In this document: positions 11,652 to 31,539 of the stretch, piece by piece
Position numbering within the stretch: the stretch's first letter is position 1
Layout of the letters: each line of letters opens with the position of its first letter
Source: Escherichia phage 04922B
Sequence record: OP331230.1
DNA length: 39,427 nucleotides
Reading direction: 5' to 3' (one strand)
Notes under the pieces: model-generated
Told to the model about the DNA's origin: nothing
Database searches by the model: none
The model's input: only the letters and a program-made list of their open reading frames with translations
Made by a program: the position numbers and the translations under genes

Positions 11652-13316
11652 ATGGCTAACGTAATTAAAACCGTTTTGACTTACCCGTTAGATGGCTCCA
11701 ATCGTGATTTTAATATCCCGTTTGAGTATCTAGCCCGTAAGTTCGTAGTGGTAACTCTTATTGGTGTAGACCGAAAGGTCCTTACTATTAATACAGACTA
11801 CCGTTTTGCTACGCGTACTACCATCTCACTGACCAAGGCTTGGGGTCCAGCTGATGGCTATACTACCATCGAGTTACGTCGAGTAACCTCCACGACCGAT
11901 AGATTGGTTGACTTTACGGACGGCTCAATCCTCCGTGCGTATGACCTTAACGTCGCTCAGATTCAGACCATGCACGTTGCTGAGGAAGCGCGTGACCTTA
12001 CCGCTGATACTATTGGTGTCAACAACGATGGTCACTTGGACGCTCGTGGTCGCCGTATCGTGAACCTTGCTAACGCCGTGGATGACCGTGACGCTGTTCC
12101 GCTGGGGCAACTCAAGACCATGAACCAGAACTCGTGGCAGGCGCGTAATGAGGCCCTACAGTTCCGTAATGAGGCTGAGACTTTCAGAAATCAAGCGGAG
12201 GGCTTTAAGAACGAGTCTAGCACTAACGCTACGAACACTAATCAGTGGCGTAATGAGGCTAAGGGGTTCCGTGATGAAGCAGAGCAGTTCAAGAATACGG
12301 CTGGTCAATATGCTACATCTGCTGGGAACTCTGCTACTGCCGCACATCAATCTGAGGTGAACGCTGCTAACTCCGCAACTGCTTCCGCTAACTCTGCTAC
12401 TCTGGCAGAACAGCAAGCAGACCGCGCCGAGCGTGAGGCTGATAAACTTGGTAACTGGAACGGACTTGCTGGTGCTGTAGATAGTGTTCAGGGTGATAGT
12501 GTATTCTGGAAAGGAAGCGGCTATTGGGTCGGAGGTCCCGTATACCGACTACAAACGAACCACGCGTTTAGGTTCCGTATGGGTCTTTGGGAAGAAGGCG
12601 ACTTCCTTAAGTCTGACTTCGCTATGGACCGACCGGACGGTATAGGGTTCATAGAGTATGCAGCGGACAAGACTGGTCAACATCGTCACCAGATTCGACT
12701 TAATCAGTTAACAATAGCTGGCGGTGTGTTAGAGTCAGATGCTGATGGTTTCATATCCCACGCTTTCGCTGACCAGTACACCACTAAAGCTCCCTTCTTC
12801 CAGCAGATTCAGGTACAATCTACAAGCTCATATCACCCAATAATAAAGCAACGAACTTACCAATCTGGACGGTGGGCAGGATGCTGGTCTATCGGTACAT
12901 TGCTGACTGGAACGCATCCGTCATTCCACATACATATGAGAGACGAATCGTCAAATGATAAACTTTGGACGTTCAATACCAATGGAGACTTCCTCGTCCC
13001 TGGGGAGATTTGGGCCAATGGTGGGCGTGTGGTTGTACAGAATGGCTCTTTTAACCCTGCTGGTAGAGTTTGGGGTACTGCGTATGATTCTGGATACCTA
13101 GATGATTGGATAAGGGCTAACTGGCCCGGCGATATTTATTGGGGTCCTCAACGCTGGGTACAAAAGTGGGGAGGTTATGCAGACATAGTTGCTGGTGCTG
13201 GGGAAGCATGCTCTGGTGTAACCGCTGATGGTAGCGGTAACGTTGCGGGTGCATTCTTCCGAGCGCTTTGGCTTGGATATCACAACGGTAATAAACGATT
13301 GGTTGCTTCCCAATAA
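11652..13316 (+). CDS. 17: Tail fiber protein gp17; T7-like N-terminal half, unrelated C-terminal distal domain
   Basis: 554-aa ORF. Residues 1 to about 285 (MANVIKTVLTY...ADRAEREADKL) match T7 gp17; the rest (...FHIHMRD...GNKRLVASQ) does not match the T7 C-terminus I recall. Confidence 0.9.
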   Translation: MANVIKTVLTYPLDGSNRDFNIPFEYLARKFVVVTLIGVDRKVLTINTDYRFATRTTISLTKAWGPADGYTTIELRRVTSTTDRLVDFTDGSILRAYDLNVAQIQTMHVAEEARDLTADTIGVNNDGHLDARGRRIVNLANAVDDRDAVPLGQLKTMNQNSWQARNEALQFRNEAETFRNQAEGFKNESSTNATNTNQWRNEAKGFRDEAEQFKNTAGQYATSAGNSATAAHQSEVNAANSATASANSATLAEQQADRAEREADKLGNWNGLAGAVDSVQGDSVFWKGSGYWVGGPVYRLQTNHAFRFRMGLWEEGDFLKSDFAMDRPDGIGFIEYAADKTGQHRHQIRLNQLTIAGGVLESDADGFISHAFADQYTTKAPFFQQIQVQSTSSYHPIIKQRTYQSGRWAGCWSIGTLLTGTHPSFHIHMRDESSNDKLWTFNTNGDFLVPGEIWANGGRVVVQNGSFNPAGRVWGTAYDSGYLDDWIRANWPGDIYWGPQRWVQKWGGYADIVAGAGEACSGVTADGSGNVAGAFFRALWLGYHNGNKRLVASQ

Positions 13317-13325
13317 GGAGACATT

Positions 13326-13709
13326 ATGCGTAAATTTACTAACTGGACATACGAAGTAACTACCGCTTACGGCGGTATCGCCACTTATGACGTGACGGCC
13401 TCTTGTGGGACCGATTGGTATGAACTCATGGTTGAACTTGAGGACCGACCTGAGAGATGGGTCGTCGGTCTTGATAAGAACGGATTCATCTCATGGTTCT
13501 CCGATGGTACTGTTAACGGCACTTATGCGCCACCTGAGGGCGGTCTGGTGATTGTCACCGATGAGTTCGACCCTGAGTGGCAACGTGTTAAACTTTGGAA
13601 CGGGGAGTCCTTCGAGGATATCCCTAAGCCACCTAAACGTACACCTGAGGAAATCCAAGCAGACCTTGAGGCTCTGATGGTTGAACTTCGTGCGCTTAGG
13701 GAGGGATAA
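13326..13709 (+). CDS. Inserted 127-aa ORF absent from T7; possible tail-fiber assembly chaperone
   Basis: Strong RBS taaggagacattATG; sits between gene 17 and the holin where T7 has only a short spacer; segment PPEGGLVIVTDEFDPEWQRVKLWNGESF weakly resembles Tfa-type assembly proteins (memory-based, unverified). Confidence 0.6.
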   Translation: MRKFTNWTYEVTTAYGGIATYDVTASCGTDWYELMVELEDRPERWVVGLDKNGFISWFSDGTVNGTYAPPEGGLVIVTDEFDPEWQRVKLWNGESFEDIPKPPKRTPEEIQADLEALMVELRALREG

Positions 13710-13723
13710 TGGAGGTAAACTAA

Positions 13724-13927
13724 ATGTTGTCTTTAGATTTCAACAACGAAATCGTAAAGGCGGCTCCGATTGTCGGGACGGGTGTGGCTGATGGTGCAGC
13801 CCGTCTCTTCTTTGGATTGTCGCTAAACGAATGGTTCTACGTTGCCGCTATCGCCTACACAGTGGTTCAGATTGGTGCCAAGGTAGTCGATAAGATGATT
13901 GACTGGAAGAGAGCCAATAAGGAGTGA
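13724..13927 (+). CDS. 17.5: Type II holin (gp17.5)
   Basis: 67-aa ORF MLSLDFNNEIVKAAPIVGTGVADGAARLFFGLSLNEWFYVAAIAYTVVQIGAKVV..., recognised as T7 gp17.5. Confidence 0.93.
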   Translation: MLSLDFNNEIVKAAPIVGTGVADGAARLFFGLSLNEWFYVAAIAYTVVQIGAKVVDKMIDWKRANKE

Positions 13928-17161: not shown

Positions 17162-17309
17162 TCTCACAGTGTACGGACCTAAAGTTCCCCCCATAGGGGT
17201 ACCTAAAGCCCAGCCAATCACCTAAAGTCAACCTTCGGTTGACCTTGAGGGTTCCCTAGGGTTGGGGTTGGGTCATTGGGTTTACCTTTGAGTGTCTCTC
17301 TGTGTCCCT
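17162..17309. repeat. Terminal repeat of the mature linear genome, single copy (concatemer-junction form)
   Basis: tctcacagtgtacggacctaaag...gagtgtctctctgtgtccct matches the T7 terminal-repeat start and end; exact boundaries are approximate. Confidence 0.75.
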
Positions 17310-20794: not shown

Positions 20795-23446
20795 ATGAAC
20801 ACGATTAACATCGCTAAGAACGACTTCTCTGACATCGAACTGGCTGCTATTCCGTTCAATACTCTAGCTGACCATTACGGTGAGCGTTTAGCTCGCGAGC
20901 AGTTGGCCCTTGAGCATGAGTCTTACGAAATGGGTGAAGCACGATTCCGCAAGATGTTTGAGCGTCAACTTAAAGCTGGTGAGGTTGCGGATAACGCTGC
21001 CGCTAAGCCTCTCATTACTACCCTGCTCCCTAAGATGATTGCACGCATCAACGACTGGTTTGAGGAAGTGAAAGCTAAGCGCGGCAAACGCCCGACAGCC
21101 TTCCAGTTCCTGCAAGAAATCAAGCCGGAAGCGGTAGCGTACATCACCATTAAGACCACTCTGGCTTGCCTAACCAGTGCAGACAATACAACCGTTCAGG
21201 CTGTAGCAAGCGCAATCGGTCGAGCCATTGAGGATGAGGCTCGCTTCGGTCGCATCCGTGACCTTGAAGCCAAGCACTTCAAGAAAAACGTTGAGGAACA
21301 ACTAAACAAGCGTGTAGGTCACGTCTACAAGAAAGCATTCATGCAGGTTGTCGAAGCGGACATGCTCTCTAAGGGTCTACTGGGTGGCGAGGCGTGGTCT
21401 TCATGGCATAAGGAAGACTCCATTCACGTGGGGGTTCGCTGCATTGAGATGCTCATTGAGTCAACAGGAATGGTTAGCTTGCATCGTCAAAATGCTGGCG
21501 TAGTAGGTCAAGACTCTGAGACTATCGAACTCGCACCGGAATACGCTGAGGCTATCGCTACTCGCGCTGGAGCACTAGCTGGCATTTCCCCAATGTTCCA
21601 GCCTTGCGTAGTCCCTCCTAAGCCTTGGACTGGTATTACTGGTGGTGGCTATTGGGCTAACGGTCGCCGTCCTCTGGCGCTGGTACGCACTCATAGTAAG
21701 AAAGCACTGATGCGCTACGAAGATGTTTACATGCCTGAGGTGTACAAAGCGATTAACATTGCGCAAAACACCGCATGGAAAATCAACAAGAAAGTCCTAG
21801 CGGTCGCAAACGTAATCACCAAGTGGAAGCACTGCCCTGTAGAGGACATCCCAGCGATTGAACGTGAAGAACTCCCGATGAAACCGGAAGACATCGACAC
21901 GAATCCTGAGGCTCTCACCGCATGGAAACGTGCCGCTGCCGCTGTGTACCGTAAAGACAAGGCTCGCAAGTCTCGCCGTATCAGCCTTGAGTTCATGCTT
22001 GAGCAAGCCAACAAGTTCGCTAACCATAAGGCCATCTGGTTCCCTTACAACATGGACTGGCGCGGTCGTGTTTACGCTGTGTCAATGTTCAACCCGCAAG
22101 GTAACGATATGACCAAGGGTCTGCTGACGCTGGCGAAAGGTAAACCAATCGGTAAGGAAGGTTACTACTGGTTGAAAATCCACGGTGCAAACTGTGCTGG
22201 TGTCGATAAGGTTCCGTTCCCTGAGCGCATCAAGTTCATTGAGGACAACCACGAGAACATCATGGCTTGCGCTAAGTCTCCACTGGAGAACACTTGGTGG
22301 GCTGAGCAAGATTCTCCGTTCTGCTTCCTTGCGTTCTGCTTTGAGTACGCTGGGGTACAACACCACGGCCTTAGCTACAACTGCTCTCTTCCGCTGGCGT
22401 TCGATGGGTCTTGCTCTGGTATTCAGCACTTCTCCGCGATGCTCCTTGATGAGATAGGTGGTCGTGCGGTTAACCTGCTGCCTAGTGAAACCGTTCAGGA
22501 CATCTACGGGATTGTCGCTAAGAAAGTAAATGTGATTCTGCAAGCAGATGTAATCAACGGGACCGACAACGAAGTAGTTACCGTGACAGATGAGAACACT
22601 GGTGAAATCTCTGAGAAAGTCAAGCTGGGCACTAAGGCGCTGGCTGGTCAATGGCTGGCTTACGGTGTTACTCGCAGCGTGACTAAGCGTTCAGTCATGA
22701 CGCTGGCTTACGGGTCCAAAGAGTTCGGCTTCCGTCAACAAGTGCTGGAAGATACCATTCAACCAGCTATTGATTCCGGTAAAGGTCTGATGTTTACTCA
22801 ACCGAATCAGGCTGCTGGGTACATGGCTAAACTGATTTGGGAAGCTGTGAGCGTCACGGTGGTGGCTGCGGTTGAAGCAATGAACTGGCTTAAGTCTGCT
22901 GCTAAGCTGCTGGCTGCTCAGGTCAAAGATAAGAAGACTGGAGAGATTCTTCGCAAGCGTTGCGCTGTGCATTGGGTAACTCCTGATGGGTTCCCTGTGT
23001 GGCAGGAATACAAGAAGCCAATTCAAACTCGCTTGAACCTGATGTTCCTCGGTCAGTTCCGCTTACAGCCAACCATTAACACTAACAAGGATAGTGAGAT
23101 TGATGCACACAAACAGGAGTCCGGTATTGCTCCTAACTTTGTACACAGCCAAGATGGTAGCCACCTGCGTAAGACTGTGGTGTGGGCGCATGAGAAGTAC
23201 GGAATCGAATCATTTGCGTTGATTCACGACTCCTTCGGGACAATTCCTGCTGATGCTGCCAACTTGTTCAAAGCTGTGCGTGAAACTATGGTCGACACCT
23301 ATGAGTCTTGTGATGTACTGGCTGACTTCTATGACCAGTTCGCCGACCAGTTACACGAGTCTCAATTGGATAAAATGCCAGCACTTCCTGCTAAGGGTAA
23401 CTTGAATCTCCAAGACATCCTTAAGTCAGACTTCGCGTTCGCGTAA
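20795..23446 (+). CDS. 1: T7-type single-subunit DNA-dependent RNA polymerase (gp1)
   Basis: 883-aa ORF MNTINIAKNDFSDIELAAIPFNTLADHYGERLAREQ... with DGSCSGIQHFSA and HDSFGT motifs; near-identical to T7 RNAP. Confidence 0.98.
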   Translation: MNTINIAKNDFSDIELAAIPFNTLADHYGERLAREQLALEHESYEMGEARFRKMFERQLKAGEVADNAAAKPLITTLLPKMIARINDWFEEVKAKRGKRPTAFQFLQEIKPEAVAYITIKTTLACLTSADNTTVQAVASAIGRAIEDEARFGRIRDLEAKHFKKNVEEQLNKRVGHVYKKAFMQVVEADMLSKGLLGGEAWSSWHKEDSIHVGVRCIEMLIESTGMVSLHRQNAGVVGQDSETIELAPEYAEAIATRAGALAGISPMFQPCVVPPKPWTGITGGGYWANGRRPLALVRTHSKKALMRYEDVYMPEVYKAINIAQNTAWKINKKVLAVANVITKWKHCPVEDIPAIEREELPMKPEDIDTNPEALTAWKRAAAAVYRKDKARKSRRISLEFMLEQANKFANHKAIWFPYNMDWRGRVYAVSMFNPQGNDMTKGLLTLAKGKPIGKEGYYWLKIHGANCAGVDKVPFPERIKFIEDNHENIMACAKSPLENTWWAEQDSPFCFLAFCFEYAGVQHHGLSYNCSLPLAFDGSCSGIQHFSAMLLDEIGGRAVNLLPSETVQDIYGIVAKKVNVILQADVINGTDNEVVTVTDENTGEISEKVKLGTKALAGQWLAYGVTRSVTKRSVMTLAYGSKEFGFRQQVLEDTIQPAIDSGKGLMFTQPNQAAGYMAKLIWEAVSVTVVAAVEAMNWLKSAAKLLAAQVKDKKTGEILRKRCAVHWVTPDGFPVWQEYKKPIQTRLNLMFLGQFRLQPTINTNKDSEIDAHKQESGIAPNFVHSQDGSHLRKTVVWAHEKYGIESFALIHDSFGTIPADAANLFKAVRETMVDTYESCDVLADFYDQFADQLHESQLDKMPALPAKGNLNLQDILKSDFAFA

Positions 23447-23454
23447 CGTCAAAT

Positions 23455-23477
23455 TAATACGACTCACTATAGAGGGA
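23455..23477 (+). promoter_or_regulatory. T7-RNAP promoter phi1.1A
   Basis: taatacgactcactatagaggga. Confidence 0.9.
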
Positions 23478-26726: not shown

Positions 26727-26729
<3 letters not shown>

Positions 26730-26749
26730 TACGACTCACTATTGGGAGA
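26727..26749 (+). promoter_or_regulatory. T7-RNAP promoter phi2.5
   Basis: taatacgactcactattgggaga. Confidence 0.9.
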
Positions 26750-27494: not shown

Positions 27495-27950
27495 GTGGCT
27501 GGTGCATACGCTGCGCGTGGTATCAGAAAGGTCGGGACATTCCGTTCCGGCCTAGAAGATAAGGTCTCTAAGCAGCTAGAGGGTAAGGGCATTAAGTTCG
27601 ATTATGAACTGTGGAAAATCCCTTACGTTGTCCCTGCGAGCAACCATGTGTATACTCCAGACTTCCTGCTGCCTAACGGAATCTTTATTGAAACCAAAGG
27701 TTTATGGGAGAGTGACGACCGAAAGAAACACTTATTGATTCGCGAACAGTTTCCTGAACTTGACATCCGTCTGGTGTTCTCAAGCTCACGCACCAAGCTG
27801 TACAAAGGGTCTCCGACCAGTTACGGTGAGTGGTGCGAGAATCACGGCATTCTGTTTGCTGACAAATTAATTCCGGTAGAATGGCTCAAAGAACCTAAAA
27901 AGGAGGTGCCATTTGACAAGTTAAAGCAATCTAAGGGAGGAAAGAAATAA
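27495..27950 (+). CDS. 3: Endonuclease I, Holliday-junction resolvase (gp3)
   Basis: 151-aa ORF ...GIRKVGTFRSGLEDKVSKQLEGKGIKF...TPDFLLPNGIFIETKG..., recognised as T7 gp3; apparent GTG start immediately after the 2.5 stop. Confidence 0.93.
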   Translation: MAGAYAARGIRKVGTFRSGLEDKVSKQLEGKGIKFDYELWKIPYVVPASNHVYTPDFLLPNGIFIETKGLWESDDRKKHLLIREQFPELDIRLVFSSSRTKLYKGSPTSYGEWCENHGILFADKLIPVEWLKEPKKEVPFDKLKQSKGGKK

Positions 27951-28406: not shown

Positions 28407-28429
28407 TAATTGAACTCACTATAGGGAGA
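28407..28429 (+). promoter_or_regulatory. T7-RNAP promoter phi3.8
   Basis: taattgaactcactatagggaga, the phi3.8-type variant. Confidence 0.88.
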
Positions 28430-28468: not shown

Positions 28469-30509
<2,041 letters not shown>

Positions 30510-30527
30510 CAGGATTCTTGACGATTT

Positions 30528-30550
30528 CAATACGACTCACTAAAGGAGAC
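30528..30550 (+). promoter_or_regulatory. T7-RNAP promoter phi4.3
   Basis: caatacgactcactaaaggagac; -17 is C rather than T. Confidence 0.8.
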
Positions 30551-30555
30551 ACACC

Positions 30556-30768
30556 ATGTTCAAACTGATTAAGAAGTTAGGCCAACTACTGGTTCGTATG
30601 TACAACGTGGAAGCCAAGCGTCTGAACGATGAGGCTCGTAAAGAGGCAACACAGTCACGCGCTCTGGCGATTCGCTCCAACGAACTGGCTGACAGTGCAT
30701 CCACTAAAGTTACCGAAGCTGCCCGTGTAGCCAACCAAGCTCAACAGCTTTCCAAATTCTTTGAGTAA
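30556..30768 (+). CDS. 4.3: gp4.3
   Basis: 70-aa ORF MFKLIKKLGQLLVRMYNVEAKRLNDEARKEATQSRALAIRSNE..., recognised as T7 gp4.3. Confidence 0.92.
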   Translation: MFKLIKKLGQLLVRMYNVEAKRLNDEARKEATQSRALAIRSNELADSASTKVTEAARVANQAQQLSKFFE

Positions 30769-30787
30769 TCAAACAGGAGAAACCATT

Positions 30788-31057
30788 ATGTCTAACGTAG
30801 CTGAAACTATCCGTCTATCCGACACCGCTGACCAGTGGAACCGTCGAGTCCACATCAACGTGCGCAACGGTAAGGCGACTATGGTTTACCGCTGGAAGGA
30901 CTCTAAGTCCTCTAAGAATCACACTCAGCGTATGACGTTGACCGATGAGCAAGCACTGCGTCTGGTCAATGCGCTTACCAAAGCTGCCGTGACAGCAATC
31001 CATGAAGCTGGTCGCGTCAATGAAGCTATGGCTATCCTCGACAAGATTGATAGCTAA
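30788..31057 (+). CDS. 4.5: gp4.5
   Basis: 89 aa MSNVAETIRLSDTADQWNRRVHINVRNGKATMVYRW..., recognised as T7 gp4.5; the ORF-track start at 30761 is upstream of the true Met. Confidence 0.9.
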   Translation: MSNVAETIRLSDTADQWNRRVHINVRNGKATMVYRWKDSKSSKNHTQRMTLTDEQALRLVNALTKAAVTAIHEAGRVNEAMAILDKIDS

Positions 31058-31059
31058 AG

Positions 31060-31102
31060 AGTGGTATACTCAAGGTCGCCAAAGTGGTGGCCTTCATGAA
31101 TA
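31060..31102 (+). promoter_or_regulatory. RNase III site R4.7
   Basis: gtggtatactcaaggtcgccaaagtggtggccttcatgaatac hairpin. Confidence 0.75.
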
Positions 31103-31125
31103 CTATTCGACTCACTATAGGAGAT
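31103..31125 (+). promoter_or_regulatory. T7-RNAP promoter phi4.7
   Basis: ctattcgactcactataggagat. Confidence 0.85.
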
Positions 31126-31131
31126 ATTATC

Positions 31132-31539
31132 ATGCGTGACCCTAAAGTTATCCAAGCAGAAATCGCTAAGTTGGAAGCTGAACTGGAGGACGTTAAGTAC
31201 CATGAAGCTAAGACTCGCTCCGCTGTTCATATCTTGAAGAACTTAGGTTGGACTTGGACAAGACAGACTGGCTGGAAGAAACCAGAAGTTACCAAGCTGA
31301 GCCACAAGGTGTTCGATAAGGACACTATGACCCACATCAAGGCTGGTGATTGGGTTAAGGTTGACATGGGAGTTGTTGGTGGGTACGGCTATGTCCGCTC
31401 AGTGAGTGGCAAATACGCACAAGTGTCATACATCACTGGCGTTACTCCGCGAGGGGCAATCGTTGCCGACAAGACCAACATGATTCACACAGGCTTCTTG
31501 ACGGTTGTATCGTATGAAGAGATTGTTAAGTCACGATAA
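31132..31539 (+). CDS. 4.7: gp4.7
   Basis: 135 aa MRDPKVIQAEIAKLEAELEDVKYHEAKTRSAVHILKNLGW..., recognised as T7 gp4.7. Confidence 0.92.
   Translation: MRDPKVIQAEIAKLEAELEDVKYHEAKTRSAVHILKNLGWTWTRQTGWKKPEVTKLSHKVFDKDTMTHIKAGDWVKVDMGVVGGYGYVRSVSGKYAQVSYITGVTPRGAIVADKTNMIHTGFLTVVSYEEIVKSR

Follow-up and report, generated by a model that had tools for sequence, protein, structure and literature searches.

The class II promoters of bacteriophage T7 are weak, and no T7 RNA polymerase (RNAP) terminator is known downstream of them ahead of T-phi; none is listed there in the curated T7 record. One of these promoters, phi4.3, lies between genes 4 and 4.3; in the annotated T7 record (NC_001604) gene 4 ends at 13265, the phi4.3 transcription start site (+1) is 13341 and gene 4.3 begins at 13352. 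A literature search on phi4.3 retrieved a T7 simulation study as its sole result; every class II promoter was set there at 0.01 of phi10 (PMC6938266). The same junction has been sequenced in relatives of T7. Yersinia pestis phage phiA1122 (AY247822), coliphage 13a (EU734174) and Yersinia phages Y and R are identical to the sequence analysed here over the end of the spacer and the promoter (positions 30515–30552), including a C at promoter position -17. They differ in having ACACCCATG where the present sequence has ACACACCATG, with the distance from promoter to ATG one base shorter.

The stretch of DNA analysed (the window) is the 39,427-nucleotide sequence of Escherichia phage 04922B (OP331230.1). 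It represents a whole, circularly permuted Teseptimavirus genome with ∼92% identity to both T7 and phiA1122 in a whole-window comparison; position 1 corresponds to T7 22970 (the start of gene 10) and position 17162 to T7 position 1. The terminal repeat is present as a single collapsed copy of ∼148 bp (17162–17309). Among the phages of the collection, coliphage C5 came closest overall (95%). An inspection of the sequence alone (hereafter, the sequence-only reading) had described the gene 4 to 4.3 junction of this phage as compacted, with a non-consensus base at -17 of a phi4.3 promoter that was probably functional but possibly weaker. The comparisons presented below make it very likely that the site is the class II phi4.3 promoter, of ordinary type, in a natural T7 relative, lying in a widespread junction allele that lacks a 40-bp hairpin segment and carries a T-to-C change at -17. 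The arrangement is a common phi4.3 allele that had been sequenced and annotated before and is not peculiar; of the two variants, that of the T7 type strain is the rarer.

The gene 4 to 4.3 junction of 04922B and that of T7

The features of the junction, and the gene for the polymerase that would read the promoter, are listed in Table 1.

Table 1. Coordinates of the gene 4 to 4.3 junction and related features in the 04922B window
Feature	Position	Strand	Basis
Gene 4, primase/helicase, 4A form, 566 aa from MDNSHDS...	28809..30509	+	ORF list (ORF as listed begins at TTG 28776; ATG 28809 assigned from the T7 gp4A N-terminus); stop TGA 30507–30509
Gene 4.2-type ORF, 103 aa, out of frame over the gene 4 3′ end	30232..30543	+	ORF list, T7 comparison
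18-bp spacer CAGGATTCTTGACGATTT, gene 4 stop to promoter -17	30510..30527	+	Alignments, coordinates
phi4.3 promoter CAATACGACTCACTAAAGGAGAC, -17 to +6, for T7-type RNA polymerase	30528..30550	+	Position weight matrix (30.8 bits), orthology to T7 phi4.3
Shine-Dalgarno AAGGAG for gene 4.3, within promoter -2..+4, 7 nt before ATG	30543..30548	+	Sequence
Gene 4.3, 70 aa, ATG at 30556	30556..30768	+	ORF list; ortholog of T7 gp4.3 (13352–13564)
Gene 1 RNA polymerase, 883 aa, reader of the promoter	20795..23446	+	T7 RNAP comparison

Over the 801 bases around the phi4.3 site, identity was 97.5% with T7 and 97.6% with Shigella phage ESh6, and the 3′ end of gene 4 showed 97.5% DNA identity to T7 gene 4A/4B. 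In the promoter, -17 corresponds to C30528, -2 to A30543 and +1 to G30545. In T7 and the window alike, the GGAGAC start region also serves as the ribosome-binding site of gene 4.3, and +1 lies 11 nt from the ATG; in the window, ACACC separates the promoter from this codon. In Serratia phage Pila, the annotation places a ribosome-binding site for gene 4.3 at the equivalent position. The T7 promoter (TAATACGACTCACTAAAGGAGAC) shares 22 of its 23 bases (-16 to +6) with that of 04922B, including the A at -2. The only difference between the two promoters is at -17, a T in T7 and a C in the window. The sequence-only reading had correctly reported both the C at -17 and an A at -2 of the phi4.3 type.

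The two phages differ more clearly in the spacer. In T7, 58 bp (13266–13323) precede the promoter and 86 bp separate the gene 4 stop from the gene 4.3 ATG; the corresponding distances in the window are 18 bp, the value already read directly from the sequence, and 46 bp. The sequence-only reading had suggested a longer spacer in T7, and this was borne out, the window spacer being 40 bp shorter. Alignment with T7, the check which that reading proposed, showed that the spacers are not identical and that they differ by a single indel: one clean 40-bp gap, equivalent to T7 13280–13319, in otherwise nearly identical sequence. The window spacer therefore equals T7 13266–13279 joined to 13320–13323. 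As a result of the spacer change, the bases upstream of -17 read cgattt in the window and ccattc in T7.

Since the short sequence of the EG1 type (GATGATTTTAATACG) equals the long sequence of the CICC 80001 type minus exactly 40 bp, the simplest history would start with a single 40-bp indel, position -17 later changing from T to C in the short form. As to polarity, the indel may represent a deletion in the lineage of the window or an insertion in that of T7. Two other origins were considered and rejected. Recombination between two ACGACT hexamers is less parsimonious, as these lie 39 rather than 40 bp apart and an extra indel and two substitutions would be needed. The T7 40-bp segment does not appear to be a degenerate duplicate of the promoter either; TTTCCAGACGACTAC resembles TTTTAATACGACTCAC, but the local alignment score was 7, the mean for shuffled sequences was 5.9, and 25% of these scored as well. 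A search of the window for further copies of the T7 40-bp segment found none.

Since the 40-bp indel shifts the reading frame, the gene 4.2-type ORF has a C-terminus and a stop codon that differ from those of T7. In the window its predicted product (103 aa) ends in ..DDFNTTH and the ORF stops at the TAA made up of promoter positions -4 to -2, while T7 gp4.2 (112 aa) ends in ..DDFPDDYEKFRWRVPF and its TAA stop lies at -17 to -15 of phi4.3. The phage 13a record annotates the same 103-aa form (a 312-nt ORF) as gp4.2. Judging from these sequences, the tail of this type of ORF is evidently not conserved.

Distribution of the short spacer and of C at -17

The exact 38 nt that comprise the end of the spacer and the promoter with C at -17 (window 30515–30552) were found with 100% identity in 21 database records, corresponding to 16 phages: phiA1122, 13a, Y, R, YpP-Y, YpP-R, YpsP-G, Pila, UFV01, HZP2, SYGE1, AV103, ESh1, ESh3, ESh6 and PDP351P2. 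These phages were isolated independently, on Yersinia, Escherichia, Shigella and Serratia hosts. A promoter is annotated at the matching place in three of the 21 records (Y, R and 13a). The record of Yersinia phage Y labels the identical 23-mer ‘phi4.3; phage promoter’, and in 13a the coordinates of the promoter feature are shifted 6 nt relative to -17..+6. Serratia phage Pila was 100% identical to the window over the 71 nt tested, and one IMG/VR contig also matched the junction pattern.

An alignment of 14 Teseptimavirus genomes showed the 40 bp to be absent from the window, ESh6, phiA1122, Y, Pila, pO111, IME390, EG1 and WX2, present in T7, CICC 80001, WW2 and CQ615, and rearranged in 3A_8767. 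The short-spacer phages EG1, IME390 and WX2, which have T at -17, show the same clean 40-bp gap. Database searches identified the short spacer in 13a, R, YpP-Y, YpP-R, YpsP-G, UFV01, AV103, PDP351P2, 64795_ec1, SYGE1, ESh1, ESh2, ESh3, NC-A, HZP2, WX1 and vB_YpYeO9 as well, and the long one in Yanou, JacobBurckhardt, PGX1 and EmilieLinder. In total, the short spacer was present in at least 25 natural isolates and the long one in about eight, T7 apart; most records with the long form are laboratory derivatives of T7. T occupied -17 in each of the nine long-allele sequences examined, and C at this position was seen on the short background only.

The description of the junction as compacted did not hold, since it takes T7 as the norm; the short spacer is the commoner form among natural Teseptimavirus isolates, with an identical sequence in 16 phages. 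The T7 type strain is thus not the norm for the gene 4 to 4.3 junction, at which most of the sequenced natural relatives are short, and differences from a reference strain should not be read as peculiarities.

In more distant relatives a promoter-like sequence was found ∼17–18 bp past the gene 4 stop. Salmonella phage Vi06 (positions 230–275) has the short spacing; at the position of phi4.3 it carries TTAACACAACTACACCAAAGGAGAC, a T7-type promoter in badly degraded form; the ribosome-binding site there is intact. In C5 (NC_048079, 1845–2300) an endonuclease gene separates a phi4.3-like promoter (TAATTAGACTCACTAAAGGAGGT) from gene 4.3, and phage N30 likewise has an endonuclease listed after gene 4. 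Judging from such cases, this junction seems to be an indel hot spot.

The phi4.3 promoter and the effect of C at -17

A position weight matrix derived from the 17 annotated promoters of T7 assigned 30.8 bits to the site at 30528. Exactly 17 sites scored 14 bits or more in the window, all of them on the + strand and collinear with the 17 T7 promoters. With the same matrix, the - strand of the window contained no promoter site of at least 14 bits (top score, 12.5 bits), and in 100 dinucleotide shuffles such sites averaged 0.05, the best reaching 19.0 bits. The score at 30528 is therefore certainly far above chance. The invariant core from -12 to -5 (CGACTCAC) is intact, reading ATACGACTCACTA, and +1 is a G. 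The alignment with annotated T7 places the site at the orthologous position, between genes 4 and 4.3 and on the transcribed strand, and gene 1 of the window encodes a cognate polymerase of T7 promoter specificity. The site also shows class II traits, namely A at -2 and GGAGAC rather than the GGGAGA of class III promoters, as do T7 phi4.3 and phi1.6. A scan of positions 30200–31200 revealed no sigma-70-like promoter or intrinsic terminator above shuffle expectation. Transcription from phi4.3 of the window is predicted to initiate at +1 with the phage RNAP, and we infer that it is active in 04922B in vivo.

Three other promoters of the window also differ from their T7 counterparts, here in the opposite direction: phi1.1A (23455–23477) has T at -17 where T7 has C, phi3.8 (28407–28429) has T at -2 where T7 has A, and phi2.5 (26727–26749) reads TATTGGGAGA, as compared with TATTAGGGAA in T7.

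The C at -17 had been presented as a peculiarity, a view that a survey of both genomes did not support. C occupies this position in three of the 17 T7 promoters (phi1.1A, phi4c and phi4.7), in which it is the second-commonest -17 base, and in three of the 17 promoters of the window (phi4c, phi4.3 and phi4.7). The three T7 promoters are annotated class II promoters, like phi4.3 of the window, although they lie at other loci and depart further from the consensus. The RNAP encoded by gene 1 has 10 substitutions in 883 residues relative to T7 RNAP; the residues that contact the promoter are identical, namely 88–105, which include the AT-rich recognition loop, 225–245 (the intercalating hairpin) and 739–770 (the specificity loop). 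Since these contact regions are identical, data obtained with T7 RNAP should transfer to 04922B.

Such data are available from a barcoded library of promoter variants (-17..+2) transcribed in vitro, for which ratios of RNA to DNA reads were reported (Komura et al. 2018, S2 File; PMC5937735). The consensus TAATACGACTCACTATAGG, represented by five barcodes, gave values of 188, 188, 176, 153 and 142 (mean 169, CV 11%), and the variant with C at -17 alone (CAATACGACTCACTATAGG) gave 149, within the wild-type range of 142–188 (PMC5937735). The variant with A at -2 alone (TAATACGACTCACTAAAGG) gave 161 and 138, while that combining C at -17 and A at -2 (CAATACGACTCACTAAAGG), which is the -17..+2 sequence of phi4.3 in the window, gave 116 from one barcode (PMC5937735). 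This corresponds to ∼69% of the consensus and ∼78% of the phi4.3-type sequence with T at -17, in values that for the window sequence come from one barcode and a library with downstream sequence of the GGGAGA type, the window promoter having GGAGAC (PMC5937735). T at -17 was kept in 77.9% of the 244 active variants, as compared with 73.6% of the input library, which indicates that selection at this position was almost nil; retention at -9..-7 exceeded 98% among active variants (PMC5937735). A small affinity cost of C at -17 is plausible, since the AT-rich recognition loop has been assigned to -17..-13 (PMC10138996). By analogy with these data, phi4.3 of the window is probably functional and at most mildly weaker, in keeping with what the sequence-only reading had suggested: 116, against 169 for the consensus and 161 and 138 for A at -2 alone. 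T7-type promoters thus tolerate C at -17, both in nature and in vitro.

In the mechanism proposed, the phage RNAP would bind -17 to -5, with the AT-rich recognition loop contacting -17..-13 and the specificity loop -11..-7; melting would proceed from -4 onward and transcription would start at G30545. The transcript would carry at its 5′ end the GGAG of the gene 4.3 ribosome-binding site and would continue into genes 4.5, 4.7 and 5. C at -17 might cost at most a modest fraction of the activity and, as read-through from upstream class II promoters would also cover genes 4.3 onward, its net effect on expression would be small. Since the class II promoters are weak and no terminator is known before T-phi, read-through from phi3.8 and phi4c should buffer small changes in phi4.3.

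The T7 hairpin and alternative readings of the junction

When folded as RNA, T7 13270–13330 formed a hairpin with arms GACUUUCCAG and CUGGAGAGUC (dG -19.5 kcal/mol, z -3.57), a fold matched by one of 200 shuffled sequences. The window junction showed no structure (dG -6.1 kcal/mol, z -0.1). The 40-bp indel coincides almost exactly with this hairpin, which spans T7 13279–13317 (arms GACTTTCCAG and CTGGAGAGTC) and is missing in the window between 30523 and 30524. Its arms are kept in eight other long-allele phages, including 3A_8767, in which 14 nt of the loop are deleted. No compensatory substitutions were found in the hairpin among the nine long-allele sequences, and EmilieLinder breaks the top pair. 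Since the region is ∼94% identical anyway, and no compensatory change was seen, the conservation of the hairpin is uninformative. The curated T7 record annotates no feature at this place.

An assembly or sequencing artefact, for instance the collapse of a hairpin-containing stretch, would also produce a short spacer. The 40 bp of T7 form a strong hairpin, structures of this kind can give sequencing drop-outs, and the genome in the window was assembled and is circularly permuted. Such an origin has nevertheless a negligible probability: the identical junction was obtained in 16 independently sequenced phages, including the Sanger-era phiA1122 and the curated 13a, whose record annotates both the promoter and the 103-aa form of gp4.2, and the same clean gap occurs in EG1, IME390 and WX2, with T at -17. 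If the short spacer is accepted as real, the presence or absence of the hairpin could still be the functionally relevant difference, the hairpin acting in T7 as an mRNA stabiliser, or as a processing or pause site, 3′ of gene 4; short-allele phages, 04922B among them, would then handle their gene 4 and 4.3 transcripts differently. The near coincidence of indel and hairpin, a fold that one in 200 shuffles equals, and arms that persist in 3A_8767 despite the 14-nt loop deletion speak for such a role. It is nonetheless considered unlikely, as most natural isolates do without the hairpin, the T7 record has no feature annotated there, the nine long-allele sequences offer no compensatory substitution and in one (EmilieLinder) the top pair is broken, and conservation is no guide at ∼94% regional identity.

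The other alternative concerns the promoter itself: the C at -17 and the new upstream context might substantially weaken or inactivate phi4.3, leaving genes 4.3 to 4.7 dependent for their expression on read-through out of phi3.8 and phi4c alone. The dose of gp4.3 and gp4.5 would then have undergone a regulatory change; some related records annotate gp4.5 as inhibiting a host toxin/antitoxin system. Position -17 does lie within the stretch (-17..-13) contacted by the AT-rich recognition loop (PMC10138996), T is kept there in nine of nine long-allele phages, and the double variant was the lowest of the four related library sequences, at 116 (PMC5937735). However, 116 as compared with 169 is a drop of ∼30% and not a loss, and the 149 of the single C variant falls within the wild-type values of 142–188 (PMC5937735). 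C is also the -17 base of three established T7 promoters, and 16 phages of independent isolation are fixed for the allele; a substantial weakening thus seems highly improbable. Since every C at -17 that was seen belonged to a sequence lacking the hairpin, the two changes might also be connected, the hairpin cassette being a functional RNA-level polymorphism that protects the ends of gene 4 transcripts or directs their processing, and C at -17 a linked, compensating adjustment of phi4.3 strength. To this combination, too, we give very little credence. An ordinary class II promoter in a widespread hairpin-less allele is the reading preferred over all of these. The result is of small importance, the extra hairpin of T7 being the one loose end with some potential.

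The window differs from T7 at other places of the genome. BLAST tiling showed T7 genes 2.8, 5.3 and 7.7 to be absent, with joins at 27498/27519, 33659/33675 and 36687/36693, and the distal part of the tail-fibre gene 17 (12440–13729) had no nucleotide match to T7. According to the T7 annotation, 2.8 and 7.7 are endonucleases; gene 3.8 (28469–28834) is kept in the window.
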